Positions 4,990 to 46,300 of a DNA stretch of 64,000 nt are shown here, piece by piece. The number at the start of each line of letters is the position of its first letter. Within the stretch, counting starts at the first letter, position 1. The stretch lies in assembly GCA_032718475.1 (NCBI GenBank), contig JAUCBJ010005935.1:1-64000 (forward strand). Reading direction: 5' to 3'. This DNA comes from Nemertoderma westbladi (taxonomy: Eukaryota; Animalia; Xenacoelomorpha). The position numbers and the translations under genes are program-made. The notes under the pieces are model-generated. The model worked only from the letters and a program-made list of their open reading frames with translations, made no database searches and was not told the DNA's origin.

Positions 4990-6020
4990 GGTATGGTACG
5001 GTTGCTAGGTACGGTACGGTTGCTAGGTACGGTACGGTTGCTAGGTACGGTACGGTTGCTAGGTACGGTACGGTTGATAGGTACGGTACGGTTGCTAGGT
5101 ACGGTACGGTTGCTAGGTACGGTACGGTTGATAGGTACGGTACGGTTGCTAGGTACGGTACGGTTGCTAGGTACGGTACGGTTGCTAGGTACGGTACGGT
5201 TGCTAGGTACGGTACGGTTGCTAGGTATGGTACGGTTGATAGGTACGGTACGGTTGACGGTACGGTTGCTAGGTACGGTACGGTTGCTAGGTACGGTACG
5301 GTTGCTAGGTACGGTACGGTTGCTAGGTACGGTACGGTTGCTAGGTACGGTACGGTTGCTAGGTACGGTACGGTTGCTAGGTACGGTACGGTTGCTAGGT
5401 ACGGTACGGTTGCTAGGTACGGTACGGTTGATAGGTACGGTACGGTTTACGGTACGGTTGCTAGGTACGGTACGGTTGCTAGGTACGGTACGGTTGCTAG
5501 GTACGGTACGGTTGCTAGGTACGGTACGGTTGCTAGGTACGGTACGGTTGCTAGGTACGGCACGGTTGCTAGGTACGGTACGGTTGCTAGTTACGGTACG
5601 GTTGATAGGTACGGTACGGTTGCTAGGTACGGTACGGTTGATAGGTACGGTACGGTTGCTAGGTACGGTACGGTTGCTAGGTACGGTACGGTTGCTAGGT
5701 ACGGTACGGTTGCTAGGTACGGTACGGTTGCTAGGTACGGTACGGTTGCTAGGTACGGTACGGTTGCTAGGTACGGTACGGTTGCTAGGTACGGTACGGT
5801 TGCTAGTTACGGTACGGTTGATAGGTACGGTACGGTTGATAGGTACGGTACGGTTGCTAGGTACGGTACGGTTATTAGGTACGGTAAGGTTGCTAGGTAC
5901 GGTACGGTTGCTAGGTACGGTACGGTTGCTAGGTACGGTACGGTTGATACTGTAGGTACGGTACGGTTGCTAGGTACGGTACGGTTGATACTGTAGGTAC
6001 GGTACGGTTGCTAGGTACGG
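4990..6020. repeat. 18-bp minisatellite (GGTACGGTACGGTTGCTA)n, roughly 55 copies
   Basis: Directly visible; GCTA/GATA variants; explains the YGTVAR and GTVRLL ORFs. Confidence 0.95.
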
Positions 6021-10300: not shown

Positions 10301-13300
10301 CCTAGCGGCAGACAGGGGAACTTTAAAGTTTGTCTGAATTTAGAATTTCTAAATAAACAATGCTTGTAGGTGTAGGTCACTCTTACCAAATTTCAAGAAG
10401 ATATATCAACCATACATAAAATATGTTCAAACAAAAATAATGCTTTATTAAAACTTTTATTACTTTAGTTTACTTAACTGTGGTAATTACATTGCAAGTC
10501 TTACAATTCATGTTACTATTCATGTCATTTTTTGAGAAAGTTTGACTGGCCCATTTGTTTCAAAATTGATTTATTAAATTAAATGAACGGGAAAAGGGCC
10601 ACCTTTACTATCATAAAGAATGAGATGATTTACATTAGGGCCACAAATATACATCTTTTACAGTGTCCCATTTCCATCCAAATTGATCTTACAAATAAAC
10701 TGAACTGTAAGAATGAAGAGAAATAAGATAGGGCCATTGAGTTATATAGGTACACTATACCTACATATCTCACTTTATAGATATATAAGTTGGCCCTTTC
10801 GCTCGTTTTTTCATCTTTATGTATGTATATTAAAATGGTATATGTAGGAACATATATACACAAGATATGTAGATATACTAATGGCCCTTTTTACTTCCAT
10901 TCTGTATTATATAGGTACATAATACCCTTAATTTCAAAGATACATATCTATGGCCCTTTAGGCCGAACGTACATATATATATATATATTATTTCTTAAAA
11001 TAGAGCATATAGTACTTATTACTTATTAATTCTTTATGATTAGGTACATTAAATTATTATTTTAATAATATTCGATAATATCAAATTAGATATTAAATTG
11101 TTATATCTTATCAGCTACAGAGACAAAAAGACAAATTATATAGAATTATATTCCCTAAATGCCGTGGATTTTCAAAATTTTATTTTATTCGAATTAACTT
11201 TGTAAAGATTGCTTTGAGTTCTCATTCGTATTTGTTCTATCATTTGAACGCCTATTGGTCAAGTGGTTCAGTAGCTCAGTCGGTAGAGCGTTGGAAATTA
11301 TAATAATAATAATAATAATATTTAATAATTTGTATAGCGCCAACATTACCGGTAGTATTCTATGGCGCTAATCAGAGTTAGAAAAGAAAAGAAAAGAAAA
11401 GTAATAAGCAGGTAATAAACAGGTGAGTCTTTAGTTTTCCTTTGAATGATGCCGTAGACTGGATATCACGTAGCGAAGCTGGTAGTTTGTTCCACAGCCG
11501 GGGCGCGCATACCTCGAACGCCCGCCACCCGAGAGTGTAGCACTGGAACCGTGGTTCGACGAGACTTACTGTGCTACAACTTCTAGTTTGGAGGCGATCG
11601 CGACTAACTTTATGGAGCATTTCGATTATATATTTGGGAGCGTGGCCCACCAAGGCCTTGTGCGTCATCAGCAGTCAAATTATATGTGTAGTAGGTATTG
11701 AGTTCGAATCCTAGTAAGTGCGAATTATTTTTTGTGCAGAATTTCAACTCATTTAAATTGACCGCTACAAATTAATTGCATTTGTCTGTACCAATGAGAC
11801 TGTAGTTATTTGATTGTAACCAATGTCGTGCAAGTTATACATTAGCTGGACCAATAGCTATCTTTAAAACCTTGTTAGAACCTATAGAACAATCGAGAAT
11901 TTTCTCGATTGATTGCGGCACAAATTTGGTATATAAAGGTGCGATTTGTTCATTAGTTATCTCATTACTCTAACCATATTCGTATCTCTGAGTTATCTAA
12001 TATTTGTTTATTCTGTCATTAGTATTCAGATTACATTTTGTATTATTATCTGCAATAAATTCAGAAATACTGCTATCTGCCTTTCTTTTCACCATGGATT
12101 CACTACGGTGAACAAACCTAAGGGACAGGATGGCCGGCTAGAGATCGGGCCGCAGCAATGAACGGGAACATCACAGGAATGTAGACGAGAGACAACCCGC
12201 AATACCATCTTGAGTTATTCGCCCATCGCCTGAAAGGTTAGACAGCGTTCGACGCCTTGCTACCCAAGTGTAAGACCAAAAGATCAAAAGGTAGAAGTAG
12301 TGACACGCTGTGAGCCTAAAATTACATCTTAGGGACTGTACTGTCTTGATTCAGGAAAACCACAGTAGACCTTCATATTCCTACGGGGTAGAGGGAAAGA
12401 GCAGGCAGATACTAGTACGCAGATAGGACGTAGGCACACCGGTACGAAGCATACAAATTGGTAGGGTGCAGCAAACTGTACGCCTAACTCTTGCTAAGTA
12501 CAGGTGTGTGTGCGACTATTTGTAGTACGACGGTGTCCATTGCATTAGAGCTTGTAGGCTAGGGGTTGCTGTGTTTTCACCTGAATTGGGATTGTGCCGT
12601 TCAGGCGGTAGGGCAGTTTACAGCTAGGCGCAAATAAATTGAGGCTATTAGGGATACTAACATCTACCGTGTCCCCGCCAACGCCCTAATAGGAAGTTAC
12701 CCGGACTACCTGGGTGACTAAAATTCTAGATAGGAGCCAGGATAGCTATTAGTAACTGTACGCCTACAGTAGTAAACTAACACATCTCTTCTTAGTATCA
12801 GGGACCTGGTACCTAAAATTGCCGAATTCTGGGCGTAGCATTAACCTTATGCCTGAATTTGAGTCCTGGAAATACGCAGGAGGGGAAGGAACCTTATCAT
12901 TCGTGAGTATTGGACCTACAAGTTGCAAAATTAGAATATTCGTAAAATACACACCGTACCCAGTAATTATATATGTGAAGGAGCAAAACTGTTTTTGACC
13001 GTTCAGAATTAACACACGCGCGTTAGAAATTATTTACACCTCAAAATATATAAAATTAACTTTGTCCGTACTGTGCTTTGCCCGCTAGTTAGACATCTCC
13101 AAATCTCTGCCTGTACCTAGCTAGCGTCTCTTCGCCCAACCATATAAATCACACCGCGGCAAAGTATACGAGCCCCTTAGTCCATCAGTGAGTCAGCCTG
13201 ATTTTAGGATTCGCTGCGCGGGATTTTGTTTCATCGAAGTTTGTCTGCTCGTAGACTGTTTTCTGCCTCACCGGTTATAAGAGATCGATACTGCAATATA

Positions 13301-16300
13301 TTCGCTTACTTAGAGTTTACTGTTTTGGTGAGAAGGTCGGATTTATGATTTGATTTACAAACTTTACAGTAAGATATTGCAGGTATTGTTGCCGTCTCTT
13401 CGTATAGTAGGAATATGTTTTACTGAACTACGGTTCGGTAGGACTAAAGTTATTTGAAAATTTTGTATTTTGAGGTAAAAATTTATATTTGATTAGCTAA
13501 GTGCTAATTTTTTGAAATAAAATTTGATTTGAACCGCGTGTAAAATATTTTTGGAATTGAATACCGGTGTTTAAAAAGGGTTTAAATACCATATTGTACC
13601 GGTACAAAATTTTCGTAAAGTAAAACCTAACTCTTTTGTTTTTTCAGGATTCAGAACTCATTTCTAGACTGTAACGGGAGCAAGACCGTGTTTAGCAAGT
13701 TTGGGAGATAGATAACTCAACAACTTTGGTTGGGAAAATCGCGCTTCGTCCGCAACGCTGGAAACGGAAAGGTTCACGTTCGGTTTGTATCTGGGAATCT
13801 GTTTTTCTGGAGAATTATTGGAGTGGGTGAGTTCGAAAGGTTGCATAAATAAGTTAGGCATTACCGTATTAGTTAAAATTATTGTGGGTTCCACTGTCTC
13901 AAGTATTTATGCATTCCGTATGATTTCTTTGTTCATTGCTGAATTAGTCCGTATTATTGTATTTAATTTACCTTTTGATAACGCATATCGTTATCCGATT
14001 TATTTGTTATAAAATTGGCCGCTAGGCTAATTTTATTATATACTTATTCCGTGACATTTATTTGCTGTAAAATTGGCCGTTTAGGCTAATTTTATCCATC
14101 TGCTATAAAATCGGCCGGTAGGCTAATTTTATATGACTGTAATTAGTACCGTTTAGATATAAAAACGGTAAGTTTGATACTTTGACACTCACTTTACTTG
14201 ACTTGCAACTACCGAAATGAGTGACAAACAAGACTATACGAAGAATACACCTACCGACTATGACTCATGTGACGGAGATAAGTCAGCAGAGGAAGAACAA
14301 CAGGGGAAGACTCGCGAGCCTACCGAACCTACACCGTGTGCGTCACCAGTACATCCAACGGGAGTACCGGATGCCGTAGTACGAGGCGACGGCAGGACCG
14401 AGGACTTTCTAACTGTTCCGCAACCTAGATATAGGGAAACGGAATTGGTAAGTTCAGCAGGAAGCACAGAAAGTGTGGTTAGAAGCGTCGGAGGATACAT
14501 GGCGCATATAACCAGGAGTATTGGAGAAGGCCAACGCATATTAGACGAGTTGACCGCTCCGATGTCTCGGTTCGAGTTCTACACTCTACAGGTGAGAGTA
14601 CAGAGTAAAGTATATAAGTCCGTAGATAACCTAATTGGTCTACAAGATCTAGCTAGACAGAGACAGGATATGGACACTCAGCTTAGAATCCTCGAGAAAC
14701 TAATGATCGCTAGAGAGAAACTGATTCAGTTTAAGTCGACGATTAGACAGATACAACAGGAACAAGCGGACCAGTTGTTAGGTGAGTCAGTTTCGGACGA
14801 ATTATTGCAACCCGAGGAAGAACAGGAACTGTACCGACTGGATGGACAATTGAAACACCTAACGGATCACTTACGCATGTGCGGCGAGGACGTCGGAGAT
14901 TGGGAAACCGTGCCGGAGGCTACGAGGGAAACTTCACTCGCACAAATCGAACCGGCACCGGGAACACTAGATCAATCACTGGTGAGTATTCGCAGCGAAA
15001 TTGGCGAGGTGAGTATGGCTACGTCAGAAATTGCTCGACAACAGCAGATCTACAGACAACAACAGGAGTGGGAGGAACAAACTCAATTACTAATGGCACA
15101 AGTAGCAGCAGAAGAAGAGAAACTACGCGTTGCGAATGTTGCGAGAATCTCTCATCTGCAAGAACAAGCTGAGTTGGAAGTAGCCGAAATGGAAAGGTTA
15201 GAGTTGGACATTGCACAACAAGCAGCAGCGGCCGAGTTAGCGCAACGAACGGCAGCGGCCGAGTTAGAGCGACAAGCGGCAGCGGCCGAGTTAGAGCGAC
15301 AAGCGGCAGCGGCAGCGGCAGCGTCCGAGTTAGAGCGACAAAGGTTAGCTTCAGAAGCGAGAACCGAAATGAAAAAACGGCAAATAAAGGCTCAATCAGC
15401 GATACGACAAGCGGAGTTCGAGGCGCAACAACAACAAACGGAACAACGCGAGAAAGAAGTTAAACTTCGTTTTGAACTCGAGAAGAAGGCGAGAGAATTA
15501 GCCAACGCCAAGGAAGATCTGGATCTACAAGCCCGCGATCGATCAATGAGATCTCGAGACGGACATGACTTGGACCAGATAGAGGTAAGACATCGCCAAA
15601 TTCAGGAACGGAAGAAGGAAGGAAGCGTAGGAGCACCCGGACGGGAACGACAATTAGTAAAGGACTTGTGTCAAAGATTCCCACAGGTAACTCATATGTT
15701 TGCACCGGTTACGACTAAGGAACCTGTTTCGATTGCGGGTAGTAGTAACATTTCTCCTATCCATGGTGCGACGGAACACAGGTTTGTTATTCCGGACGAG
15801 TTTACACCGCCAAGAGCAACGTCGTCGCCTATTCCGAAAGTCAAGGTAAGTAACCCACCGATTACAGATCGTAGTAGTTTGTTGACTGGACCTGCACTAC
15901 TGACGACTAAACAGGTGAGTCCACCGTCGACACCTAAACCCGTTACACACTACGCTTACCCAATGACGTTTCGACCTACAAGGCCAGTTGATTCAAATGC
16001 TGTCATTCGCCCACCGGTTCAGTTTACATCGCAATCTACGACTTCGAGGAAGACTTGTGAGCCTACCGAACAACGGAGAACAGTGGATACGCGACCGAAC
16101 CAGTTTACATCGCAATCTACGACTTCGAGGAAGACTTGTGAGCCTACCGAACAACGGAGAACAGTGGATACGCGACCGGTTCAGTTTACATCGCAATCTA
16201 CGACTTCGAGGAAGACTTGTGAGCCGAACAACGGAGATCAGTGGACGATGTTCCGAAACGAAACGTTAGAATTCGTACGACGCAACGGACGCGAGCACGT

Positions 16301-19300
16301 CGACCGCCATATCCAGATGATAGTAGTACTTCGAGCGAATCGGATTACCCGAAACGCGAGGTATTTAGAACAGGGGCGGCCGATGAATATAAACGCGAGC
16401 GTTCAGACAACTCCTTTGTAGACAATCCTCCACAGAATACACCAACACCGAAGGCGTTACAACCAACGGACGCAATAAGTACACAACAGTTCGCCGACAT
16501 CCTGCGACCAGTTGTTAACAAGTTGGCTCAGATCGAGGAACGTCTGGAGGAAGGTTACACCGACAGTTCGAGAAATTCCGAATTCGAACACAATAGACAC
16601 CCGAAGGAACCACAAAGACCGGTACCTTCAAAACATACATAGTATCAGGGAAAAGCGCCAAGAAGGGAGAACATCAACCAGGTTACCAACCAAGGACGCG
16701 AAACTCTGAACGTTGCCGAGGAGATAGCGAAATTCGCAGCGAGACAAGGATTGCCGGTACAACAACCACCGAAGTTTTCCGGTAGTTCAAAACACTGGCA
16801 CACATTCGTAGACTATATCGAATCTCAGATCGCCGTGTGCGCCTTTACATCACGGGAGAAGTTTAATTACCTGCTTCAAACGTTGTCAGGAGAACCTAAA
16901 CGTTTGGCAGAGACCTTCGTTGGTGTACCGGACGCCTTCGAACTAGCGTACGATCGTTTAACTTCGATATACGGAGGTACAGTCAGTATGGCCAGGTCAG
17001 TAATAGAGGAACTCTGTAAGGGAGGGGCTATCACAAAACCCGTCGACTTATTAAAACTGGCCGACGAGATAAAGAACGCTATCACTACTTTAAGATCCAT
17101 TGGACAACTTGATTACGGGAATACCCCTACAGTCCTATTAAAGATCATAGGACGACTCCACCATCGACTTCGTCGGGAGTGGAGAAAGATCGAATACCAG
17201 CGAGAAGAGCGGGGTGGATTCTTAAAACTAGAGGATGTGTACCTTTTGATATCCAGGGAAGCAGTTGTAGAGACTCGATCCAACTACACTGACCAGCACA
17301 TCGTAGCAGAAGGGATCACCTTGCCATCCTCCAACCGACAAAAACCCCAGACAACATCCACCAAGACGGCCACTTACGCCACACCGACGGAATCACGACA
17401 ATTCTCGGACGGTAGTAGGGTATCTGCGCCCATTGGGACGAAACAGACTAGACAACAACTCAGTACCGACTTCAGCGGCTGCCAATACTGCGAGCATTTA
17501 GGCAAGCGGTATATCGGTCACAAGTTGCGAGGTTGTCGACAGTTTCGCGAGTTGAACTCGGAAGAACGACGGCTGCAAATACGACCATTGGACTCTTGTT
17601 GGCGGTGTACGCGACACGGACACGTCCGTAAAGATTGCCCAAATACCGACACTTGTCCATCCTGTGGACGCAACCACGACGGTCTGCTCCACACAGACAG
17701 CCACACGCCGACAAAACGCTTCGCCAGGGAACACCCGGAAGCAGCAGCGAGATGTGATGCGGCCTACAAAAGGCGAGAATCGAAAACGACTCCAACCTTC
17801 GTGACCCATATTGAGGATTGCTTCTCAGAACAATCCGGATCGTCGGACGAAGAGTCAGAAGACGACGACGTATATTCGGATGGATATGAACAGCCATCGA
17901 TCGCGCTTCTGACTACTGACCAACTGAAGGGATTCAGTGTAATTCCGATTAAGGTTACTGGCACAAAGGGGAGTAAGAGAATCTACGCGATTCTAGATTC
18001 AGCCTCATCTCACAGCTACGTGGATGAAAAGATAGCTGATGTAGTGACGGATCTCCGACAAGGTAAGCACGTCAGTTATACCGTAAGTAGTATGCACGGA
18101 CAGCGTGCAATACCAGTGACACGAGTCAAGTTAAACTTAGACTCTCTTCTTCCGAAATCGCAACACAGCGAGAGGGAGAGGTCTTTGTTACCCTTCAAGG
18201 ATTTGACCTTTGCGGCCACAAAAGACTTTAGTAACCTACTAGGTCCGGTCCCAGAACAATCCTTGGAGGACCGTAAGTATTTCAGACACCTTGGTGTACC
18301 TGAATGTCCTGTCAATTATAGATCGGTAGCCATGCTGATCGGGACAGACCAATTCAACCTACACCAAGTGTGGGAAACCAGACCATCGGCAGTTGTAGCG
18401 GGAAACGCATACGCCTGCAGAACGCCGATAGGATGGTATACTCGAGCGCCTGTGCGCACACTGGACATAAGTGACGAGGAAGACGATGTACAAAGTACAT
18501 GTAGTTTATTAAATACAAATTCAATTCATTCCTTCTCACACGACGTGAACCGTACTACCTTACAGACAAAACATAACAGACGTGTAACTAGTATGATAAG
18601 TCACAAGGAGCAGCTAATCCACCAGCGGAGTTTAGAACTTGGGGAGAAGACGAGTCAGCTAGAGATTCCATCGACGACAGATGATAACGCCGGAAGGCTT
18701 GCGAGTCTACCTACCCCAATGACATCAACGAGGCCCGTCGATATCGATGATGACGCGTTGAGAAATCATCAAATGGAACAAGCTGTACTGGACAAAGAAT
18801 TAACGGAGAAGACTATCAGGTGGTTAGAACAAGATACAGCTGAACCTGGTAGCTACGAACCTTGTATGTCGGAACAGGAGAAACAATCTCTGAAGATCAT
18901 GGAAGATACTATCCGACAGACGGAGGACGGACATTACGAGGTGGGGATGTTATGGCGTAGCCAAAGTCCTAAACTTATAAACAACTACCCACTAGCGTTA
19001 AGACGTCTACACTCAATCCGACAACGTCTATTAAAGGACGAGAAAGCCCATCTGCAGTACAACACTCAGATGGAGACGTATTTGACTAAGGGATACGCTA
19101 TCCGAATGACTAACCCGGAGCGAGTGACTGACCAGACGTATTACTTGCCACATCACTACGTGAGACACCCCGACAAACCAGACAAAGTACGCGTAGTCAA
19201 CGACTGTGCGGCTCTGTTTGAGGGAATGTCCCTCAATAGCGAGTTGATGGATGGACCAAACATGAATAATTATCTTATGGGGGTGATTATGCGCTTCCGT

Positions 19301-22300
19301 CAGCGTCAAGTAGCTTTTACTTGCGACGTTGAAGCGATGTTTCACCAAGTGAGAGCGTTAGAGTGAGACAGAGACAGTTTGAGGTTCCTCTGGTACCCGG
19401 AAGGAGACTTAAGTCTACCACCGGCGACTTACCAAATGCAAGTTCGCGTTTTCGGTGCCAGAGACAGCCCAAACTGCACAATGTATGCCCTAAAACAAGC
19501 CGCTAGAGATCAGAAACACCTATATGACCCAGAGATAGTTAGGATTGTGGAACGTGACTTTTACGTCGACGACGGATTACAGAGTTGCGACACAGTAGAA
19601 CGTGCTACAACAGTAGCACATCAATTACGGGACTGCTTAGCGGGCGGAGGTTTTAACCTCACCAAATTCGCCTCAAACAGTGCCGAATTAGTAGACTCAT
19701 TCGGAACGACTGAGCGTGGAGGTGGTGACATAGACCTAGAGTTCGAACCACTACCGACGACCAAGGTGTTGGGGCTCTTTTGGGACCCAAACACGGACAA
19801 CTTCCGAGTGAAGGTGAGACTGGACAGTCAAGAGAACACACTGACAAAGAGATCATGCTTGTCAAAATTGAGCCGATTGTTCGATCCGTTAGGATTCATC
19901 AGTCCAGTGATACTGCAAGCCCGCATTTATATGCGCAGTATTTGGAAGGATGGACTAACATGGGACGAGCCGATCTCATCAGACCAAGTGGACTTATGGA
20001 AGACCTGGGAGGCGGAATTATCTTCGCTAGAGGATTATTCCATACCCAGAGTTTACTTTCCATTACAAAGTACATTTCCTGACAACTTGGAACTACACTG
20101 TTTTTCTGACGCCAGTGACAACGGTTTTGGTGTGGCAGCGTACTTGCGCAGACAAGTAGACTCAGAAGCATTCGATGTTTCGCTCATTACTTCTAAGGCA
20201 AAAACAATGCCTACTAAGTATATGACGACACCACGAGCTGAGCTACAAGCCGCAACACTATCAACCACCATCGTAAACCTTATACAGACAGAACTACAGT
20301 GTTATTTCTTCGCTAGAGGATTATTCCATACCCAGAGTTTACTTTCCATTACAAAGTACATTTCCTGACAACTTGGAACTACACTGTTTTTCTGACGCCA
20401 GTGACAACGGTTTTGGTGTGGCAGCGTACTTGCGCAGACAAGTAGACTCAGAAGCATTCGATGTTTCGCTCATTACTTCTAAGGCAAAAACAATGCCTAC
20501 TAAGTATATGACGACACCACGAGCTGAGCTACAAGCCGCAACACTATCAACCACCATCGTAAACCTTATACAGACAGAACTACAGTCAAGTTTACAGATA
20601 TTTTATTGGACTGACGCGACGTTGGTTTTATTTTACATAAACAACGACACACTTGAATTCAAGACATTCGTAGCTAACCGTCGCGCAGAAATTCTAGACC
20701 GTTCAATAAAAGAGGATTGGCGACATTGTCCCGGACCACAAAACCCAGCTGATATTGCGTCGCGAGGAATGATGCCTGAGGAATTCTGTAAACCGGAGAA
20801 CAAAGAATTTTGGCAACACGGACCACAATTCTTACAAGGTTCAACACTACATTGGCCGCCACTATACGACAACAAGTCTAACACTATCCCTAAGGACGCG
20901 GAAATCAAGAAACCAAAAAAGGGGAAGGCAAAGAAAAAGACAACGGCGGCAAAACTCAAGAAAAAACCGAAGGCGAAATGGAAAGATATAACTTCAAAGG
21001 TCAAGAGAGGAAGACTTGCGAGCCTTTCTACACCAGACATATCGCCAGACGGTCAACCAGACACGTTACTGGACGGTCAATCAGACATTCTACCAGACAT
21101 TAGTAATGTATTGACTAACAGTAAAGCCGCAGTTTCCCTATTGGAGCGGCCTTGTATTGACAAACTACCAATTTTGACACACTTGAGCAACCATAAGCAC
21201 GGTGAAACCTCATGTATTACAGATGTGGGTAGTACCTACGCTAATGTAAATACAGGTGTTACTTTGCGCTCAAGAGACATACCGAACTTGCAACCTATGG
21301 TGAAACCTGGGATTAATGTCGGCAGAAAATTAAGTTTACCGAAACCTGCTGACCCCATAGAGTTCAAACCACCACCATTAACGATCGACTTACAAAGTAC
21401 CGACAATCAAGGTAAGAAGACGAAGAAGGACAAATTACTTGTAGACCCGGACGGATCAACAGTCAACAAGGGAATACTTACCGGCGGACCCGTGGGCCCT
21501 TCTAGTAATTCAAAACCTTCCAAAATCTCCATTGACTTACCTGATGACGTCACAAATACTCACGTCGACCGGATTGTAAACTTAACAGACTCTTGGTCAA
21601 ACGCTTGCCGAAAGTTAGCGTGGATTGTACGTTTTGTACAATACGTTAAAGGCAAACGTGACTTTACACGTCGACTTACATTGGCTGAGATTGACAGGTG
21701 TGAGATTAAATTAATTCGCCATTACCAACTGCGATATTTCGCGCGCGAATTCACATCTATAAATCAAGGTCAACCAATCAAGTCGTCACCAATACTGAGT
21801 TGGAGTCCGATTATTTATAATGGCTTAATTTGTCATAAATCTCGGCTTCAAAACATTGACTTTAACACAAACTTTAGGTACCCAATAATAATACCGCAAC
21901 ATCACGAACTACAACGTGCAATGATACTGGACGCACATTTACATCTGAAACACGCTGGAAGACACCACTGTCTTTCCTACTCACGTACAAGATTTGTATT
22001 AATTAGACCCAGTAAAGCGTTAAGTTCAGTGACACGTACGTGTATTATTTGTAAAAAGGTACATTCTAGAATCGGTACCCAAGAAATGAGTGAACTACCA
22101 CAAGCACGACTTCAAGCATTCAGACCACCTTTTACAGAGACTGGAATTGATTGCTTTGGTCCCATACATACGAAACGTGGACGTATACTAGTAAAACGCT
22201 GGGGACTGATTTTCACATGTATGTCCAGTAGGGCAGTTCACATTGAACGTGTGATGGATCTTTCCACCAACGCGTTTATACTAGCACTGCGGCGATTTAT

Positions 22301-25300
22301 CGCTAGACGCGGACTAGTGAAATGCTTGTACTCAGACCAAGGGACAAACTTTGTTGGTGCTCGGAATGAGATTGCTAGAGCCTTTAAGAAATTAGATCAT
22401 GATCAAATCTCGAACGAACTACAACCTCATAAGATTGTTTGGAAGTTTAATCCTCCAGATAGTCCATGGAGAGGCGGAGTCTGGGAGAGATTGATTAGAT
22501 CTATCAAGACAGCCATGGCAAAGGTCATTCCAGTAAACCACATACTGACAGACGACCAACTGACAACATTGTTTGTTGAAATCGAGGCAATACTAAATAC
22601 TAGACCAATAGTATTAGTACCCGATGACAAACAATCTCAGTTCGCTTTAACACCTGCACACCTGCTTATGCAGGCACCGACTACTTTGACGCCGATTTCT
22701 ATTCCAATTGAAGGCGATAGCTACGGTAGAAAGGCGTGGAAAATCACGCAACTACTGGCTAACAAATTCTGGGAAATATGGCAAAACCATTATTTGCCCT
22801 CTATTTCTACCAGAACAACTTGGTACAATAACACCCGCGCATTAAAGCCGGGAGATCACGTGCTGTTAGCAGAAGTGAATCTAAAAAGACGCTTCTGGAT
22901 AACAGGTGTAATTTTAGCCACACATCCATCTATGGATGGAGTGACAACAACTGTGACGGTACGGACAATTGACGGTCGTACAGTAGACAGACCGACTCAA
23001 CGTCTCGTACTTCTTGAAGAGACTCGTAACGAGTCTGGAGACTACAAATCTCCACCTAATACTAGTAAATAATTAGGAGTTTACAAATAGATTTCCACGT
23101 ACCTGTACACCGTAGTAAGGACAGCGGTAGAATTCCATTGTCTTTTTATGTGAACATTGAGGGTAGTACCCTTATGTGTCACATAGGAGCGGGATTTGTA
23201 GGTATAAGAAATTGAATTCTACTTGGAACTCACAATATTGAGACATTTTCGAAATTTTAGACAATCCATTTGGATTTGAAAAATTTTAAAATTTTCTCCA
23301 GTGAATAGATTTCAGGGTACAGTCGGGTGGAACTTAAAATTAGAGAAACAAGAGAGGAAGACTTGCGAGCCTTTCTTAAAATTTTAATTAAATTTTACAC
23401 GGTCTTGTTTCAATAAGTTACGTCAATAAATAGACTCCCCTATATTTATTACTAATTCTTGACTGCTTATTTTCTGATAATAGTTTGGGATCAAAAGGTG
23501 AGTATTTTAGACTCACAGCCAGTTTAGCCCAAATCCGTTTTTATTTCGGCAAAAAATTTTAGATAAGAAGCAGCGTGTCATTAAAGAAACCCTAGATCTT
23601 AGGCTATGGGTAGGAGGTTAGAGCGTTGTCGAGCCCAAAGGGCAGACGAAAACTCTCACGTCTCCTCACAACTAACTACAAACTCTGTTGTATTCCCTCT
23701 AGTAGTAATGATTATGTAACTACACCCCTAATTATGGAGAAAGGGATACAAGGAGAGCCGAGATGGGGATATGATATCCAAGAGGAAGCAGCAGCGCCAT
23801 TCGAAAGATTTGGAGCCAAGGACTACACTATATTTGGTATAAAGGAATTATCAGAAAGTACAGCGAAACTCGCAAAGACTAAATATGACAACCCTTCTAC
23901 AACTCCGACGCTCAGTGTAATGCCTTTACTCGAGCAGGATTTAGTATATTTCGAGACGTCTATCTTCGCTGTGCGGGATCTCTTATCGAAAGACCATCTA
24001 TGTTTACATTGTTACCCTATGAAGGAGAACGTATCGTGGAGATTACGGATGAATCACGGCAGACGCGCGCGCCTATCGGTCACCTTGGTGATGATTTCGA
24101 AGTAACTACTACGATCACTGACGATCCTTTAGAGGAACTTATTGAGATAGAAAGGAACCTCCCGAAGAAATCTCAGACGGAGATTCGACAACTTGAAGCA
24201 ACAGATGCTATAGTTTGTATACAACCTTCAGAAACCTACCAACCCATAGATCCAGATGATTACGATTATAGTGTGGGCGGAAGCGCTCGACCGATTGGAG
24301 ATCTTATATACGAACGAGTGTGGTACCCTGCCAATACGATGTGTAGTAAATGTGGCGTCGCTGGACATCATATGACAAAGTGCAGTGGAAAGCACATTAC
24401 TACGACTCAGCTAATCTGTGGATGGTGTGGGGATCAAGGGTCTCATACCTTTTATACTTGCTGGAGATTTATGGCTCAATGTACTTATTGCAATATAAAA
24501 GGGCATCGAGCATCTGAATGCCAACTAAGAGACATACCTTATGAACACGAATCTGTAAAACTCGTGAGGAAATTATTTGATGAGTGGGAAGATTTAGCCG
24601 ACGAACATGTATCGGCACAAAGAAGACGGTTTCCGATGAGAGCGCATCTTGGATTTTGGGCGGTAAATCCTCAAACGATGATGTCGGAAGGATACATCTC
24701 CGCTAGGCCCCAATATGACGAACTTATCGAGGTAGTCGATATTTTGCCCCACGACAGCGGATTTCGAGTAGTGCGCGAGTATCTACTACAGATTCACCCG
24801 GATAACAAAAACACGTGGAATTTTCAGAAAGTCGTTAACCGCATTACGTATGGTGAATTCGATCGTTTCCGAACTGAAAAGCGGAACAAAGGAGCTTGGT
24901 TAACCGTCGCATGGGCGTACCGAGCCGCGTTTTACCATAAACGTATACGAGCGAGCGTATTCGTGGAAGAAAAGGTCCTAGAGGCGACAAATATACCAGC
25001 CACTCCGGTTGCGCCGTCTGCACGTCACCCTCGGGAGGACGGACAGGGTAGGATCATACGGGTCCAGAAAGTGGGCCAACAATTAAAGAAAATTATTAAT
25101 ATAGAAGAACGCAAGGGAGTTGAGCCGACCATTCGAGTTACTCGGGATACGGTATCGCTTCCAAGAGAACCAGTAGGAGGATCGGGACATACACCAGCTG
25201 ATCAACAGGGGGCGCAAGCTACTCTTGGGTCTGCGTCGTCCGCTTCTCGCGCGTTCCCAGACGTTCTACCAACTGTAGTGACAACTGATCGGTCACGAGG

Positions 25301-28300
25301 AATCGGTCGAGGTTTTGGGATGCCAAATAGACGAATTTGCGAGGAAATAGTCGCACCGTCTCTCAACGTCCCAAGTAAACCAGTGACTCGTCCCATTAGT
25401 CCCATATCGCGAGCAAAGTCACCTGTGCGCAGTTTTCGAGGACGCGGCAGGGCTCGATCAACTAAGCGATAAAAGGGAGGGCAAGGGTGGACGGAAGACT
25501 CGTGAGCCTTTCTTGTGAATTTGTGATTTATTTGAATTTATATTTATATTTGTGTTTATTCCGAACTTATGCAATTTGTATTGTTCCGAATTTATGAAAT
25601 TTAGAAATAAGAACTCATATTTAGTAAGATTTATAGTTAGTAAGAATTTATATTTGCAAGATTTATATTTTGTAAGAATTTATATTTTATATTTGTGATT
25701 ATTCCGAACTTATGCAATTTATATTATTCCGAACTTATGCAATTTATATTGTTCCGAATATTATGCAATTTACATTTTATAGGCAGTATTACAGTGAAAT
25801 AGAAAGTAAGAGTAGATGGAAGACTCGTGGGCCTTTCTTATAGTTTTATTTGTAAAGTGTTATATTTTGTATTTAGAAAGTTTTATAGTCAGAAAGTTTT
25901 GTGCTTAGAAAGACTCATATTTGTAATTATTCCAAACTTATGCAATCTACATTTAGGTACGAAAGTATTTGTAATTACTTGAATTTATGCAATATTTGAG
26001 ATGCAATAGTAGATGGAAGACTCGCGAGCCTTTCTTATCGTTTTCATTTATTTGTATTTATAATTGTTTGAATTTATGCAATATTGAGATGCAATAGATT
26101 TATATTGGTGAATTTAATTTAGATTTATATTGTACTTACTTAGTAAAGCCTTAAATACGTAAAGTTTGAATTTGTAATTATTTTTGTATCGAATCATTAC
26201 GTAGAAAGGAAGTATTATTTGAAATTTAATTTGTAAATATGTAAGTACGCCCTAAGTATTCTATAGTTTGATTGATTATTGGTGAAAACCGTATATTTTA
26301 TGCACGATAATATCCTGTTTTCATGGAGCGGTATAGAATTATATTCCCTAAATGCCGTGGATTTTCAAAATTTTATTTTATTCGAATTAACTTTGTAAAG
26401 ATTGCTTTGAGTTCTCATTCGTATTTGTTCTATCATTTGAACGCCTATTGGTCAAGTGGTTCAGTAGCTCAGTCGGTAGAGCGTTGGAAATTATATGTGT
26501 AGTAGGTATTGAGTTCGAATCCTAGTAAGTGCGAATTATTTTTTGTGCAGAATTTCAACTCATTTAAATTGACCGCTACAAATTAATTGCATTTGTCTGT
26601 ACCAATGAGACTGTAGTTATTTGATTGTAACCAATGTCGTGCAAGTTATACATTAGCTGGACCAATAGCTATCTTTAAAACCTTGTTAGAACCTATAGAA
26701 CAATCGAGAATTTTCTCGATTGATTGCGGCACAAATTTGGTATATAAAGGTGCGATTTGTTCATTAGTTATCTCATTACTCTAACCATATTCGTATCTCT
26801 GAGTTATCTAATATTTGTTTATTCTGTCATTAGTATTCAGATTACATTTTGTATTATTATCTGCAATAAATTCAGAAATACTGCTATCTGCCTTTCTTTT
26901 CACCATGGATTCACTACGGTGAACAAACCTAAGGGACAGGATGGCCGGCTAGAGATCGGGCCGCAGCAATGAACGGGAACATCACAGGAATGTAGACGAG
27001 AGACAACCCGCAATACCATCTTGAGTTATTCGCCCATCGCCTGAAAGGTTAGACAGCGTTCGACGCCTTGCTACCCAAGTGTAAGACCAAAAGATCAAAA
27101 GGTAGAAGTAGTGACACGCTGTGAGCCTAAAATTACATCTTAGGGACTGTACTGTCTTGATTCAGGAAAACCACAGTAGACCTTCATATTCCTACGGGGT
27201 AGAGGGAAAGAGCAGGCAGATACTAGTACGCAGATAGGACGTAGGCACACCGGTACGAAGCATACAAATTGGTACGGTGCAGCAAACTGTACGCCTAACT
27301 CTTGCTAAGTACAGGTGTGTGTGCGACTATTTGTAGTACGACGGTGTCCATTGCATTAGAGCTTGTAGGCTAGGGGTTGCTGTGTTTTTACCTGAATTGG
27401 GATTGTGCCGTTCAGGCGGTAGGGCAGTTTACAGCTAGGCGCAAATAAATTGAGGCTATTAGGGATACTAACATCTACCGTGTCCCCGCCAACGCCCTAA
27501 TAGGAAGTTACCCGGACTACCTGGGTGACTAAAATTCTAGATAGGAGCCAGGATAGCTATTAGTAACTGTACGCCTACAGTAGTAAACTAACACATCTCT
27601 TCTTAGTATCAGGGACCTGGTACCTAAAATTGCCGAATTCTGGGCGTAGCATTAACCTTATGCCTGAATTTGAGTCCTGGAAATACGCAAGAGGGGAAGG
27701 AACCTTATCATTCGTGAGTATTGGACCTACAAGTTGCAAAATTAGAATATTCGTAAAATACACACCGTACCCAGTAATTATATATGTGAAGGAGCAAAAC
27801 TGTTTTTGACCGTTCAGAATTAACACACGCGCGTTAGAAATTATTTACACCTCAAAATATATAAAATTAACTTTGTCCGTACTGTGCTTTGCCCGCTAGT
27901 TAGACATCTCCAAATCTCTGCCTGTACCTAGCTAGCGTCTCTTCGCCCAACCATATAAATCACACCGCGGCAAAGTATACGAGCCCCTTAGTCCGTCAGT
28001 GAGTCAGCCTGATTTTAGGATTCGCTGCGCGGGATTTTGTTTCATCGAAGTTTGTCTGCTCGTAGACTGTTTTCTGCCTCACCGGTTATAAGAGATCGAT
28101 ACTGCAATATATTCGCTTACTTAGAGTTTACTGTTTTGGTGAGAAGGTCGGATTTATGATTTGATTTACAAACTTTACAGTAAGATATTGCAGGTATTGT
28201 TGCCGTCTCTTCGTATAAATTACATAACAAAAAATAATGACAATAATATTTATAATGTAATAATAAAATATATTAATAATGCAGGAACATGTTATCATAA

Positions 28301-40300: not shown

Positions 40301-43300
40301 TCTAGAAAGTATATGTCGAAGTTTATAGAACAGTCCACCTGTTTTAGAAATTTTTTTAAGTATGTATTTAATGTGCGCCTTAAATGTGAGTTTATCATCT
40401 ATAATTATGCCTAAGTATTTTGCAGCGGACGTGTATCTGATGGGTTTGTTGTTGATATTAATTGTTGTGCTTGGTAAGTTGAAATTTTGCGAGAATGTAA
40501 ATATGGAGTATTCTGTTTTATCTTTAATTTATTATCTATCAGCCAATCATTAATTAAATTACTTTCGGTATTTATAGTATTAGTTAATCTGGTTATGTTA
40601 CTATCGTGGAACATGAGAGATGTATCGTCTGCAAACAGAGTGGCAATGAGAGAGGTTGCATTTGGGAGATCATTTATATAAAGTAAAGTAAAAAAAGAAT
40701 TGGGCCTAGTACCGAACCTTGCGGGATACCACAGGTATTCCGGTTCCGGTACCGCTACCATCATTTTAACTGTTCTAGTATATAATACTGTCTACTCACC
40801 CCGCATACAATGCATGTAGCCTGCAGAATAGGCGGTGTATGAACTTCCCCAGTTGTAGGACTTATTGTACTTGAATCGCAACTATGGTCGTTATCAAGAC
40901 TGTATAGGGAGAAGGATAAACTGCTGATTTTGTCTTTGTCGGTGGCCTGTTATTTGGAAACAAAAATATTAAAAATGGTTAATAAAATTAAAAGTGAAAT
41001 ATTATAGGCATATGATTTATCTATGTCAAACTACAATAAATTAACTATATTGTTTCCGCTCTATATTATTTAACGTAGTAAAAACTAGTTGGGATTACCT
41101 TAACAGTAGCTGTTGGTCCAATTGTTGCCATGGATACTGGTACCAATGAAATGAGACTAGCTTGATCAAAGGTAGGTCTTTCATCATCAATGTCTATGAC
41201 ATAGACATTTAGGAAGGTTGTATAAGAACATTGCATTTTGTTGCTATAAACTTTGGCTCTCATGGAAAAGGAAGTGGTTGTTTCGTAGTCGAGTGGTTTC
41301 ATTAGTACCATTTCCGTATCTAAAAGGAAAATCCGCCGTATAAATTTAAATTAAATTTATAACCTGTATTAGAAATAAGCCGTTAAAAACCAACATATTG
41401 TACGAATATTATATATAGGCAACATCACAAGAATACAACTTGAGTATATAAAGTAGTTTATTACGTGTTTCTGAATAATAATATTCTGAAAAGTTCTAGA
41501 AAAAAATGAATTTATTGGCCTGAAATATTGAAATTAATTATATTTTAACTAACCTTTTCCTATCGGTCCACCATTCGGTATAATAGTAAAGTGATTAGCA
41601 GAACCGGTATCACAGCCTGGGTTATCGTCAATGAGAGACACGCCATCTAGCGATTCGTTAGGGAATGCATCACTAAAGTCGAACACGACTTTACATTGGT
41701 TGGCATCGCAAAGTGGGGTGGCCTCCGGTAGGTACAAATCTCTACAAGAGCATAATTTTATATAATTATATAACAATTATAATACAATAACAATCTATAT
41801 AATATACTATCACAAAAGACAGAAACAATTTTAACAGTAAGAGTATACCATACTATGATATAGGCACAATCAAGGGGCGCCCTAAATTTATGATCGGCCA
41901 AAATTGACGGACCGAAAAGAAGGCGAGAATAGTAGGCGAGGAAGGCGGCGCTCGCACAAAAACAACTTTCTTCTATTTCATGATATTTTCAGTAGAGTTA
42001 AAGAAAAAAATAATTAATTCATATAGTTACAACCATAAACACAAAGTACAGTACAGTACAAAACACAAAGTACAGAATTGAATGTTAACTACAGTAAATT
42101 ATAATAGGCCTACACACCGGAACAACACACACCCTGTCTTGTGTATTTGTGTCTAGGCCTACGCTCAATACAAGACTTACATATTGGCAGCATTGGCGTT
42201 GCAACACACGGGAGCTCTGGCAGGAGTTGGTAACACAGTGGTCGATACCACTGTTGTGGGACATGGTTCCGATGTTGTTGGGCAACTTATTGGTTGAATC
42301 GTAGTCGGCTCAACATCAATACAATCCACTGATACTAAGACCGACCCGTATCCAACACAACCATCTCCATTGCGTATGATGAGCTGTAAATACGCATCCG
42401 TGTCCTCACAGACGAGTGGCTTCACCAGAGAAATCCGACCATTATTTAAAACGAAATAGTCTGAAAATTAGTTAAATTAATTAGTTAAGTTAGTTAAATA
42501 ATATATTTTAGCGACATTAAAACACAGAAACATCTAATGTCTACATTTGTAATTATTCAATGTTATCAATGCTGCAATTATACGGGTGAGTGCCTAGTTT
42601 TTCCTTTATAAGACTTTTTACCTTTTACTAATATAACATATAATTATAATAACTACTATAAACTAATATAAATGGGTTACTTATACTTAAGGTGGCTCCT
42701 ACCGCTACACCAGTCAGATATTCGGTGAAATAAAGTAAACGCAATGATACTATACTGCAATAACACTATTCTTTCAGTTTCAGTATCATTTGTACCGCGT
42801 GTTTGTACCGCGTGTTATACTGCAATAACACTATTCTTTCAGTTTCAGTATCATTTGTACCGCGTATTCTTCGGTCACTTTGCGGTAGGTCTAACAGTAA
42901 GTCCTTCATCACAGGTGCATACAGCACAAGAAACATAGGTCGTATCGTAGCGCGGACGGGACCGGTGTCACTCTATTGCTGCCTAAACCTAGTAGGCCTA
43001 CGTAACGTACATTTACAACCTGTACGCTGCAGACAGCACTCTATTGCTGCCTAAACCTAGTAGGCTATACGTAGTACTGTACATATACATCCTGTATGCT
43101 GCAGACAGCACTCTATCGCTGCCTAAACCTAGTAGGCCTACGTTCATATACATCCTGTACGCTGCAGACAGCACTTTATCGCTGCCTAAATCTAGTAGGC
43201 CTACGTTCATATGTATACATCCTGTACGCTGCAGACAGCACTTTATCGCTGCCTAAACCTAGTAGGCATACGTTCATATACATCCTGTACGCTGCAGACA

Positions 43301-46300
43301 GCACTCTATCGCTGCCTAAACCTACTGTAGTAGGCCTACGTACATATACAACCTGTACACTGCAGACAGCACTCTATCGCTGCCTAAACCTAGTAGGCCT
43401 ACGTACATATACATCCTGTATACTGCAGACTGCACTCTATTGCTGCCTAAACCTAATAGGCCTACAGTATACGTAACACATATACATCCTGTACGCTGCA
43501 GACTGCACTCTATTGCTGCCTAAGCAGACAGCACTCTATTGCTGCCTAAACCTAATAGGCCTACAGTATACGTAACACATATACATCCTGTACGCTGCAG
43601 ACTGCACTCTATTGCTGCCTAAACCTAGTAGGCTATACGTAGTACTGTACATATACATCCTGTATGCTGCAGACAGCACTCTATCGCTGCCTAAACCTAG
43701 TAGGCCTACGTTCATATACATCCTGTACGCTGCAGACAGCACTTTATCGCTGCCTAAATCTAGTAGGCCTACGTTCATATGTATACATCCTGTACGCTGC
43801 AGACAGCACTTTATCGCTGCCTAAACCTAGTAGGCATACGTTCATATACATCCTGTACGCTGCAGACAGCACTCTATCGCTGCCTAAACCTACTGTAGTA
43901 GGCCTACGTACATATACAACCTGTACACTGCAGACAGCACTCTATCGCTGCCTAAACCTAGTAGGCCTACGTACATATACATCCTGTATACTGCAGACTG
44001 CACTCTATTGCTGCCTAAACCTAATAGGCCTATACGTAACACATATACATCCTGTGTACGCTGCAGACTGCACTCTATTGCTGCCTAAACCTAGTAGGCC
44101 TATACATAACACATATACTGTACATCCTGTACGCTGCAGACAGCACTCTATGGCTGCCTAAACCTAGTACTGTAGGCCTACGTACATATACATCCTGTAC
44201 GCTGCAGACAGCACTCTATCGCTGCCTAAACCTAGTAGGCCTACATACATATACATCCTGTACGCTGCAGACAGCACTTTATCGGGCCTAAACCTACTGT
44301 AGTAGGCCTACGTACATATACATCCTGTACGCTGCAGACAGCACTCTATCGCTGCCTAAACCTAGTAGGCCTACGTACATATACATCCTGTACGCTGCAG
44401 ACAGCACTCTATCGCTGCCTAAACCTAGTAGGCCTACGTACATATACATCTTGTACACTGCAGACAGCACTCTATCGGGCCTAAACCTACTGTAGTAGGC
44501 CTACGTACATATACAACCTGTACACTGCAGACAGCACTCTATCGCTGCCTAAACCTAGTAGGGGTAGGCCTACATACATATACAGTATATCCTGTACACT
44601 GCAGGCAGCACACACGCTACATGTTGTTACTGGAACGCTGAACGCACCAGTATAAAATAAGATTTCTAATAAATAAAACTTCGAAACCTGAAAATAAAAC
44701 AATTCGATTTATTCGATTTAAAAATGAAGAACCTATATTTCACTTTTAGGCTCTCGCTTCATATTTCACACTCGAGGCGGCGTGAAATACAATACTACTT
44801 TATTTAAATAGAATATATAGTTATTATTCTTCTAGATCTGCATTAAATGATGATTTTAAAACGAGAACGAGAACGAGATATCTTTTAGTTTTTGAGTTCT
44901 CGCTGTCTGACCGACTGCCGGTCTATCCATCAAAGATAAACACAGACATACAGACCATGAGACAACAAACAGATTACATGTCACCAAATATTAATGATTA
45001 ATTAATTAATTAATTATTGTCGCTACCCTAACGCCTCTCCATTATTGCTTTACAGCTTTCCTATTTAGCGCCGAACTTCAGTGTTCATTTCAGTTGCACA
45101 ATTATTTACTTCAACTGTATCAATTTAAATTCATTTTATTTCGCAGCTCGTTACTTTTATATCTGTTTTTATTTGATTTTATCAATCTGACAATTCTGAT
45201 CTACGGTCGATAATTACAAATAATTGTATTGAGACTTTTGTTTTATTTGTAACACTGAACCAAATGTTACCCTAATTCTACCCTATTAACAATTTAAGAA
45301 ATAATATAGTTTACATGAACTAAACCTAAATATTATTATTAATTAATTACAGTTGATTAACAACTCAAACTTCATTTCCTATAGTTAGTTGCATTATCAG
45401 TTATAGAAATTAAATGTTATTAATAATTATACTGTATATAATATATATATATTTATATTGTTTTTATTGATTGCTTGAAGATAACTTTCAGTTTGAAATG
45501 CATTGCAATTTTAGCGAAATATTTGAATATTAGTTTTATTTACATTTGAGATATTAAATAATAAATTAGCATTAATAACTGAATTAAAATTATTAACTAA
45601 ATCTAAGAAAGTTTATTTGTAATGGCTAAATATGGATGAATGGGAGAATCCTTTACGATCATTAAGAAATGCCTGCCGAGAATGCCATGATCTTCCACAG
45701 GAAACCCTTCCAGGGTTTCCTAAATACAACAAGCCATTAGCTGGAAACAGCAAATCATTAGTATTTGGTAAAATTAAGCAAATTAGATGGCAGGCAACAA
45801 TTACCTCTAAGCTATTGTATAATAGCTTACCATGGTAATATTGGTAGGTTTCCATTGAAATTAGCAAAGTTGACCCTATCCATTGAGTTACATCTAGTAC
45901 TAAAATGTCAACATATCCCGAAGGCACCCCAATTTGAGAATGAATTGTCAAGAGTTCGCAGCACTTGGTTGGCAAATTAGTTGTACAAGGAGTTGGAGTA
46001 GGTGTTGTTATAATAGCAGGACATGATGTTGCTTTATATGTAGTTGGGCAAGATACAGGAGTAGTTGTAGTTGTTGATTCAATGCAGTCTATTATGACAT
46101 TTACTGATCCATAACTATTGCAGTTATTGTTGGAGAATTGAAGTTGTAAATAAAAGTCTTTGGTATCGACACAGTCAAGCTCTTTCATCAAAACTATCAT
46201 ATAGTCTTTTATGGAGAAATAATTGTTCTTTGGATCAGGGTTTATGAGATAAACAGATGGCAGTTTTCCTTGAAAAACTACTGATATGTCCAATAACGAT

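Follow-up and report, generated by a model that had tools for sequence, protein, structure and literature searches.

The window, namely the whole 64,000-nt stretch of the Nemertoderma westbladi contig analyzed here, carries a 17-kb BEL/Pao LTR retrotransposon, which is a young but broken copy; features lie on the + strand unless stated otherwise. Its 5' LTR (11139..13406), delimited by alignment with the uninterrupted 3' LTR (26332..28217, 1886 nt), has TAT...ATA termini and is split by a 382-nt insertion, and the two LTRs differ by 4 mismatches in 1886 nt. A 5-bp target-site duplication AATTA, assigned to neither strand, flanks the element on both sides (left copy 11134..11138, right copy 28218-28222), and the two LTR copies together with this duplication fix the LTR boundaries. 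The insertion (11295..11676, - strand), recognized as an alignment gap, is present in the 5' LTR only; it has a short ORF (11378-11674) and a tandem ATT tail and looks like a LINE 3' end, and a Pfam search of it gave no match. It may belong to the L2/CR1 group. A short G-rich, PPT-like tract (26325..26331) directly precedes the 3' LTR, and similar tracts precede the 3' LTRs of relatives. In U3, tRNA-like A-box and B-box motifs were found by eye (26458..26530; in the 5' LTR the insertion splits them). Neither ARAGORN nor Rfam called a tRNA in this segment, which has no tRNA-like fold, and it was ruled out as a primer because it has no complement to the PBS (primer-binding site) and no tRNA call.

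Assignment of the element to BEL/Pao, which had been made from the sequence in a preliminary description, is borne out by the Pfam domains DUF1759 (2e-11), Peptidase_A17 (9e-42) and DUF5641 (6e-20), all above the cut-off. The gag-pol region (14217..23072), defined by domain search, ORFs and homologue alignment, has Pao-type Gag and Pol domains in the order PR-RT-RH-IN and is colinear with full-length homologues; PF05380 is present in all named homologues. In the window copy this region is broken between 16421 and 16643, RT is interrupted by an in-frame stop (19364-19366), and the RNase H region contains an exact 286-nt tandem duplication (20021-20586). As the copy cannot make an intact Pol, it would either have been mobilized in trans or have decayed once inserted. 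An extra coding region 3' of the integrase (23614..25472), found by ORFs and domain search, consists of two overlapping ORFs with a weak CCHC knuckle, and no homologue of it was found among 7995 candidates. In a quick tree built without named reference sequences, the window row forms a long branch. A search of viral contigs found no relative, and the sole genome-contig hit (L081) was discarded: it arose by chance and shows no similarity to the window.

According to ICTV, Belpaoviridae have an 18-nt PBS for tRNA-Arg or tRNA-Gly, their LTRs are 0.2-1.2 kb and their genomes 4.2-10 kb long, and their replication is poorly understood, a host tRNA primer being assumed (PMC8742986). The present element resembles them in its order of Gag, protease, RT, RNase H and integrase, its Pao-type Pfam domains, its two LTRs, its PPT and its target duplication, but differs from the description in the absence of a tRNA PBS, its 1.9-kb LTRs, its 17-kb length, its TAT...ATA ends instead of TG...CA, and its extra ORF. 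BEL/Pao membership rests on Pol, and the tRNA PBS is a descriptive trait.

The PBS (13407..13417) begins at the first base past the 5' LTR and is the exact reverse complement of an 11-nt stretch within the LTR, which is the predicted self-primer (12374..12384; 3' LTR copy 27185-27195). Neither 11-mer occurs elsewhere on the + strand of the window. Since no TGG is present at PBS offsets 0-6, the element lacks the BEL/Pao trait of an 18-nt PBS that pairs with the 3' end of a tRNA. These observations confirm the preliminary description, and its chance value of about 5e-4 for the 11-mer was also correct: an anchored match of at least 11 nt occurs at 10 of 12,893 mock PBS positions of the internal region (7.8e-4), and Markov estimates are 2.7-5.6e-4. 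Under relaxed rules (offsets 0-6, intron junctions, 10-nt threshold) the mock rate is 0.06-0.10 for this long LTR alone, and therefore the single copy is suggestive and the proof comes from relatives. Extension of the window element's primer by splicing was rejected, the junction match being no better (10 nt at offset 1 vs 11 contiguous).

For this comparison, 27 families were used, namely the window element and 26 relatives at about 40% protein identity. The 26 representatives were taken from 80 loci, the remainder being redundant or without a usable LTR end; L002 and L043, which have a candidate end and less than 80 nt of LTR, were omitted. A family was counted when a stretch 0-6 nt past the LTR paired with its own LTR over at least 10 nt, any GT donor being permitted. 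Covariation of PBS and LTR among relatives, proposed earlier as the main test, was found: a complement of 10-18 nt to the own LTR is present in 24 of 27 families (the window element and 23 of 26 relatives), whereas mock sites predict 0.5 families and 25 of 702 cross-family pairs match, and the paired letters differ between families. The LTRs of the three other families are incomplete. For 17 of the 27 families, the LTR ends were assigned by eye with the inverted repeats already seen. Under free choice of any TIR-like end, 4.15 families are expected at a threshold of at least 10 nt and 1.05 at one of at least 11 nt; the observed numbers are 24 and 19. In 10 families a second copy or diverging flanks fix the LTR end, and all of these have the complement. 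A stricter first pass (GT[AG] donors only, earlier L005 end) gave 22 of 27, and the second pass, in which the L005 end was reassigned using flank divergence, gave 24. Because several families are close kin, this number overstates the independent cases.

In 15 families the complement runs across the junction of an LTR intron, and in nine, the window element included, the primer is contiguous. Ten of the 15 junction matches use a GTAAGT donor, though any GT was permitted, and the 3' LTR of L031 is exactly the spliced form of the L033 intron, with an 11-nt complement restored. Six relatives have a TATA motif, at a distance of 52-144 nt upstream of the primer. Of the 24 families, 15 have an AATAAA downstream of the primer.

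In contigs of the window element's family, only one of the 11 primer positions is variable at 1% or more, and the following 20 nt are rich in substitutions and indels, a contrast that counts in favor of self-priming. The variant T12376C (primer position 3), which counts against it, accounts for about 25-41% of contig depth in runs X1-X3 and 94% in X4. Without a matching A13415G in the PBS, C12376 copies retain only 8 contiguous pairs; A13415G is not among the 40 of 222 differences listed. A purine-rich tract after the primer (12385..12410), predicted by folding to pair with 13239-13269, varies in length and sequence among copies.

A motif scan found a TATA-box-like motif at 11930..11937, which is the likely promoter of an upstream start; the distance from the TATA motifs to the 11-mer downstream is 442-444 nt, in agreement with the earlier figure of about 440 nt. 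AATAAA occurs at 12054/26865 and again downstream of the primer (12633..12638; 3' LTR copy 27444). A 1411-nt GT-AG intron (12237..13647), containing the primer, R-U5 and the PBS, is defined by a splice joint of 12236 to 13648 (tabulated as 12234 to 13646, GT..AG, cut +2) in one X4 contig with a depth of 249.8; the joint is absent from contigs of runs X1, X2 and X5. We infer that X4, labelled 'DNA?', is RNA. The runs were examined as contigs, in which molecule ends are not visible. Contig depth in X4 is also raised over 11691-11963, a rise not readable as expression. The donor of this intron is situated upstream of the primer, at a distance of 138 nt.

R-U5 is more structured than its shuffles (z = -4.4, 60 shuffles). 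When the sequence between primer and PBS is shuffled, the predicted primer-PBS helix still forms in 59 of 60 cases, and folding was dropped as support for the model since it is non-discriminating. The helix is absent when the RNA is folded from 11960 to 13460.

On this evidence, minus-strand synthesis is probably primed by the element's own internal RNA after a cut at the 3' side of the primer, with a PBS complementary to an internal stretch of the own LTR, a layout common to 23 of 26 relatives. As the preliminary description had proposed, the primer appears to lie inside the RNA rather than at its 5' end as in Tf1, because of the TATA spacing, the AATAAA positions, the intron-split primers and the upstream splice donor. 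An unspliced RNA would start upstream of the primer, probably at the TATA near 11930, and 12374-12384 would pair with 13407-13417. On the model of Tf1, a cut after 12384 by the RNase H of the element would leave a 3'-OH on the PBS, from which strong-stop DNA would be copied from 13406 back to 12385. The RNA would therefore have to end beyond 27196, presumably at the AATAAA at 27444; cis cleavage would require this signal, and its predicted use fits the downstream position seen among relatives. Splicing of 12236 to 13648 removes both primer and PBS, and its product may be an mRNA for translation only, unable to prime. In the 15 relatives with a split primer, the primer is completed only when the LTR intron is removed.

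Exact Tf1-type self-priming, in which a separate genomic RNA starts at 12374 with the 11-mer as its 5' end and the TATA start serves the spliced mRNA only, is a rather unlikely alternative. The stretch 12373-12379 is, as we take it, initiator-like by consensus, which we counted in its favor, and an RNA starting at 12374 folds into the helix with p about 1. The helix is not dependent on this start, as it forms for 13 of 13 RNA starts between 12237 and 12374 (p at least 0.97), and the leader can also pair with sequence upstream of the primer (-19.9 vs -13.7 kcal/mol). The match length of 11 nt equals that reported for Tf1 (PMC7175516), and Tf2 switches priming competence by alternative starts (PMC5341516). 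Against these points, a TATA about 30 nt upstream of the primer is present in none of the 24 families, and the intron-split primers of the 15 relatives would require a first exon of only 4-11 nt.

Priming in trans is less probable again. Here a second RNA, either the other genome copy in the particle or a short LTR-derived RNA ending at 12384 or 27195, would be the primer, the template would stay intact, and R might lie upstream of the primer. The upstream AATAAA (12054) adjoins the TATA in the window element and gives a conventional U3-R layout, but this position is peculiar to it (1 of 24 families), as all 23 relatives with the complement lack an upstream AATAAA in the LTR part examined. No termination signal was seen at 27195. 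The Pol III-like boxes seen by eye in U3 could be cited for a short RNA, but a T run is present in that segment at about 26539, and the segment has no complementarity to the PBS.

Slightly less probable still is that the pairing is real and selected but acts as a structural or regulatory switch (packaging, translation, PBS masking), while priming depends on some host RNA, for instance a fragment of a tRNA. This would agree with the tRNA priming described by ICTV for Belpaoviridae (PMC8742986), and TGG is present at offset 0-1 in three of 27 families (L005, L036 and L037). The other 24 have no TGG at offsets 0-6, the pairing begins 0-6 nt from the LTR end, which is the required start for priming, and the paired letters vary by family and are not fixed by a host RNA. 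A chance match in one decayed element is very improbable and already contradicted: relaxed rules do give a 10-nt match in 6-10% of mock trials for the 1.9-kb LTR alone, but the anchored 11-mer has a rate of 7.8e-4 and 24 of 27 families have the complement against 0.5-4 expected.

An LTR-adjacent PBS complementary to about 11 nt of the own LTR, with no tRNA match, is reported for Tf1/Tf2 of Schizosaccharomyces pombe, Tj1 of S. japonicus, and the Tf1/sushi and Tcn1 Ty3/gypsy groups, and the RNase H cut in Tf1 falls between base 11 and base 12 (PMC7175516, PMC4600332, PMC5341516). The window element is like Tf1/sushi in that its PBS adjoins the LTR end and is complementary to the own LTR, whereas its Pol is Pao-type and not of the Ty3/gypsy chromovirus type, placing it in a different superfamily. 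Priming is proven for Tf1, where the first 11 nt of the RNA serve as primer, and predicted for the window element, where the primer appears internal; the intron-split primer of the 15 relatives is not described for Tf1 in those parts of the reports. Self-priming has also been predicted for plant Ty1/copia elements of the TAR lineage (Houba, Osr-1), on the basis of an LTR complement that is 10 nt or longer and starts 0-5 nt past the LTR (PMC6317226). This criterion, as far as the accessible text gives it, is nearly the one applied here; the TAR lineage differs in its copia domain order and plant hosts, and that text describes no intron-split primer. Helenus and Cassandra TRIMs, according to the accessible part of their report, have small-RNA-derived LTR promoters with a tRNA-like A-box and B-box not complementary to the PBS (PMC10886601). 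The window LTR likewise has such motifs, by eye, without PBS complementarity; those TRIMs, as described there, are short and non-coding with a tRNA-type PBS, whereas the window element is a 17-kb coding BEL/Pao element without an LTR tRNA call. We found no report in the literature of self-priming in BEL/Pao, whose clades are BEL, Pao, Tas, Suzu, Sinbad, Dan, Flow, Sparrow and Surcouf.

On balance, we lean to the wider view that a broad animal branch of BEL/Pao has swapped tRNA priming for an internal self-primer under splicing control. Intron removal would build the primer in most families, while here a long intron would delete primer and PBS and so separate mRNA from genomic RNA, and copying of the primer into each new PBS would keep both in step during drift. 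If internal self-priming holds, a third superfamily of LTR elements would have evolved self-priming, and would have done so in animals and in a way different from Tf1, with the primer internal and often assembled by splicing. It would account for BEL/Pao elements without a recognizable PBS, provide a sequence rule for locating BEL/Pao LTR ends, R regions and introns, and give base-precise predictions testable by RNA end mapping. Such elements would also escape tRNA-fragment silencing aimed at tRNA-type PBSs.

By its proteins, the 17-kb element is a BEL/Pao retrotransposon, as the preliminary description had it, and falls outside the Tf1/sushi group; DUF1759, Peptidase_A17 (two matches) and DUF5641 were found above the cut-off in Pfam. 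Its closest protein relatives show 33-44% identity across the RT/RNase H stretch; those with names are found in cnidarians, molluscs, echinoderms, fishes and frogs. The copy in the window is broken: it is interrupted between 16421 and 16643, runs into a stop at 19364-19366 and carries an exact duplication of 286 nt (20021-20586). For an extra coding region 3' of the integrase (23614-25472), which has a weak CCHC knuckle, no homologue was found among 7995 candidates, and the region is not env-like by Pfam. Since variant contigs number in the thousands (4991, 1993 and 215 in three sequencing runs of one organism), the family is large and diverse. The rest of the window contains an array of 12 copies of a 405-nt unit (45989-50912), inside a minus-strand ORF of 1832 codons, and one of 18 copies of a 399-nt unit (56860-64000), which suggest that a very large, mucin-like repetitive gene has exons here, as well as minisatellite arrays at 4990-6020 (18-nt unit, 57 copies) and 42969-44562 (63/130-nt units).

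Two-copy alignment placed the 5' LTR at 11139-13406 and the 3' LTR at 26332-28217, both starting with TAT and ending with ATA, and AATTA flanks the element on both sides. The LTRs differ by 4 mismatches over 1886 aligned nt; in addition, the 5' LTR alone carries a 382-nt insertion (11295-11676, minus strand), similar to a LINE 3' end in its short ORF and tandem ATT tail. The 11-nt PBS (13407-13417), beginning at the very first base past the 5' LTR, is an exact reverse complement to LTR positions 12374-12384 (27185-27195 in the 3' copy); the match reported in the preliminary description was thus found in full, and the complementarity is a real feature.

Other properties of the LTRs were also recorded. 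The termini TAT...ATA (11139-11141, 28215-28217) stand in place of TG...CA, and the related loci L007, L041, L061 and L065 have TGT at the LTR start and TATA at its end. In U3, the segment 26458-26530, which the insertion splits in the 5' copy, has tRNA-like A-box and B-box motifs with a T run after them; recognized by neither ARAGORN nor Rfam, it may be a captured SINE head or a Pol III promoter, similar to what Helenus TRIMs have. The segment 11960-12099, holding the first AATAAA, may be subfamily-specific, because some family contigs have different sequence in its place (joints in runs X2 and X4) and contig depth is far lower over it.

A metagenome scan gave 359 confirmed relatives, 80 of which were taken further; 26 non-redundant ones whose LTR end was usable were kept, making 27 families with the window element. 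For each, we searched for the longest own-LTR complement to the sequence beginning 0-6 nt past the LTR, allowing both contiguous pairing and pairing that spans a GT...YAG junction. A complement of at least 10 nt was found in 22 families in the first pass and, when any GT donor was permitted and one LTR end was reset from four diverging flanks, in 24 (contiguous in 9, junction-spanning in 15; lengths 10-18 nt), against 0.5 expected from mock sites; the PBS-LTR covariation proposed as a check is therefore present among the relatives. The three other families (L001, L014 and L037) all have incomplete LTRs. Cross-family PBS/LTR pairs passed in 25 of 702 cases, several of which in the first pass were close kin with a common PBS. 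Because the LTR ends of 17 families were set by eye, a control choosing any TIR-like end within 500 nt was run, and it predicted 4.15 families for a 10-nt minimum (24 observed) and 1.05 for an 11-nt minimum (19 observed); where ends were fixed by a second LTR or diverging flanks, 10 of 10 families passed. The donor was GTAAGT in 10 of the 15 junction matches, though any GT was permitted, and GT opens the PBS in 20 of the 24 families. In one BEL/Pao family, the 3' LTR at L031:6694-7103 is a precisely spliced version of the intron-bearing sequence in L033:1-854, and this intron-less LTR regains a complete 11-nt PBS complement. In a quick tree the contiguous and junction types are intermixed, with the window element on a long branch; since several families are close kin, independent cases are fewer than 24.

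Judged from these sequences, self-priming in some form, all variants together, is very likely, and we favor as the probable form an internal one. An unspliced RNA begun upstream of the primer would pair its internal 11-mer with the PBS, be cleaved between 12384 and 12385, the probable enzyme being the element's own RNase H as in Tf1, the fission-yeast LTR element, and prime minus-strand synthesis. Strand transfer would require an RNA 3' end beyond 27196, and hence an end at AATAAA 27444. If the primer were left attached and copied into the plus strand, its changes would enter the PBS, which may account for the covariation; this idea was prompted by the title of Atwood-Moore et al. 2006.

A Tf1-like RNA start at 12374 is unlikely. 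A TATA about 30 nt before the primer occurs in none of the 24 passing families, and a TATA consensus lies 52-144 nt before it in six relatives; AATAAA follows the primer in 15 of the 24 and precedes it in the window element only. In run X4, one contig (depth 249.8) joins 12236 to 13648 at GT-AG, a joint not seen in X1, X2 or X5. X4 has 88 A>G places versus 18, 19 and 4 in the other runs, and one of its contigs, over 12563-13263, shows 101 differences, among which A>G on the plus strand predominates, suggesting hyper-edited double-stranded LTR RNA; we infer that X4 is RNA, although the run is labelled "DNA?" and strain differences can mimic editing. If so, the joint shows that RNA extends 138 nt or more upstream of the primer and that splicing takes out the primer, U5 and PBS.

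Several results count against the favored model. Of the 11 primer positions, a single one reaches 1% variation within the family; its variant, T12376C, accounts for about 32% of contig depth in X1, 41% in X2, 25% in X3 and 94% in X4. The compensating A13415G was absent among 40 of the 222 differences, and pattern scans found no further element copies; T12376C alone would leave 8 contiguous pairs at the primer 3' end. For all 13 RNA starts tried from 12237 to 12374, the primer-PBS helix is predicted with p of 0.97 or higher, but it does not form with a start at 11960, and when the intervening 1 kb is shuffled it still appears in 59 of 60 cases; only the overall R-U5 stability is unusual (z = -4.4). 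Priming in trans, by an RNA other than the template, is improbable. That the LTR and PBS form a non-priming structure, a host RNA being the primer, is a shade less probable again. A chance match is scarcely credible, anchored matches of at least 11 nt occurring at 10 of 12,893 mock positions of the internal region (7.8e-4) and Markov estimates being 2.7-5.6e-4.

The nematode Cer7 was reportedly at one time suggested to encode a primer-like sequence of its own, which would be a partial precedent. ICTV describes BEL/Pao as having an 18-nt PBS for tRNA-Arg or tRNA-Gly and a poorly understood replication (PMC8742986). From the portions available, Tj1 and Tf2 are similar to Tf1 (PMC4600332, PMC5341516), and self-priming is predicted for the plant Tcn1 and TAR lineages (PMC6317226). 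The main text, as far as available, of four BEL/Pao surveys (PMC3118150, PMC554778, PMC6238403, PMC2774666) never mentions the PBS, and the available parts of PMC3601003, PMC8220671, PMC5443660, PMC3286476 and PMC10886601 contain nothing on BEL/Pao self-priming; no report of it was found in the literature covered, most subscription papers being outside this scope. The window element likely works as Tf1 does, but with an internal primer, which would be a known mechanism in altered form within a superfamily held to be tRNA-primed.
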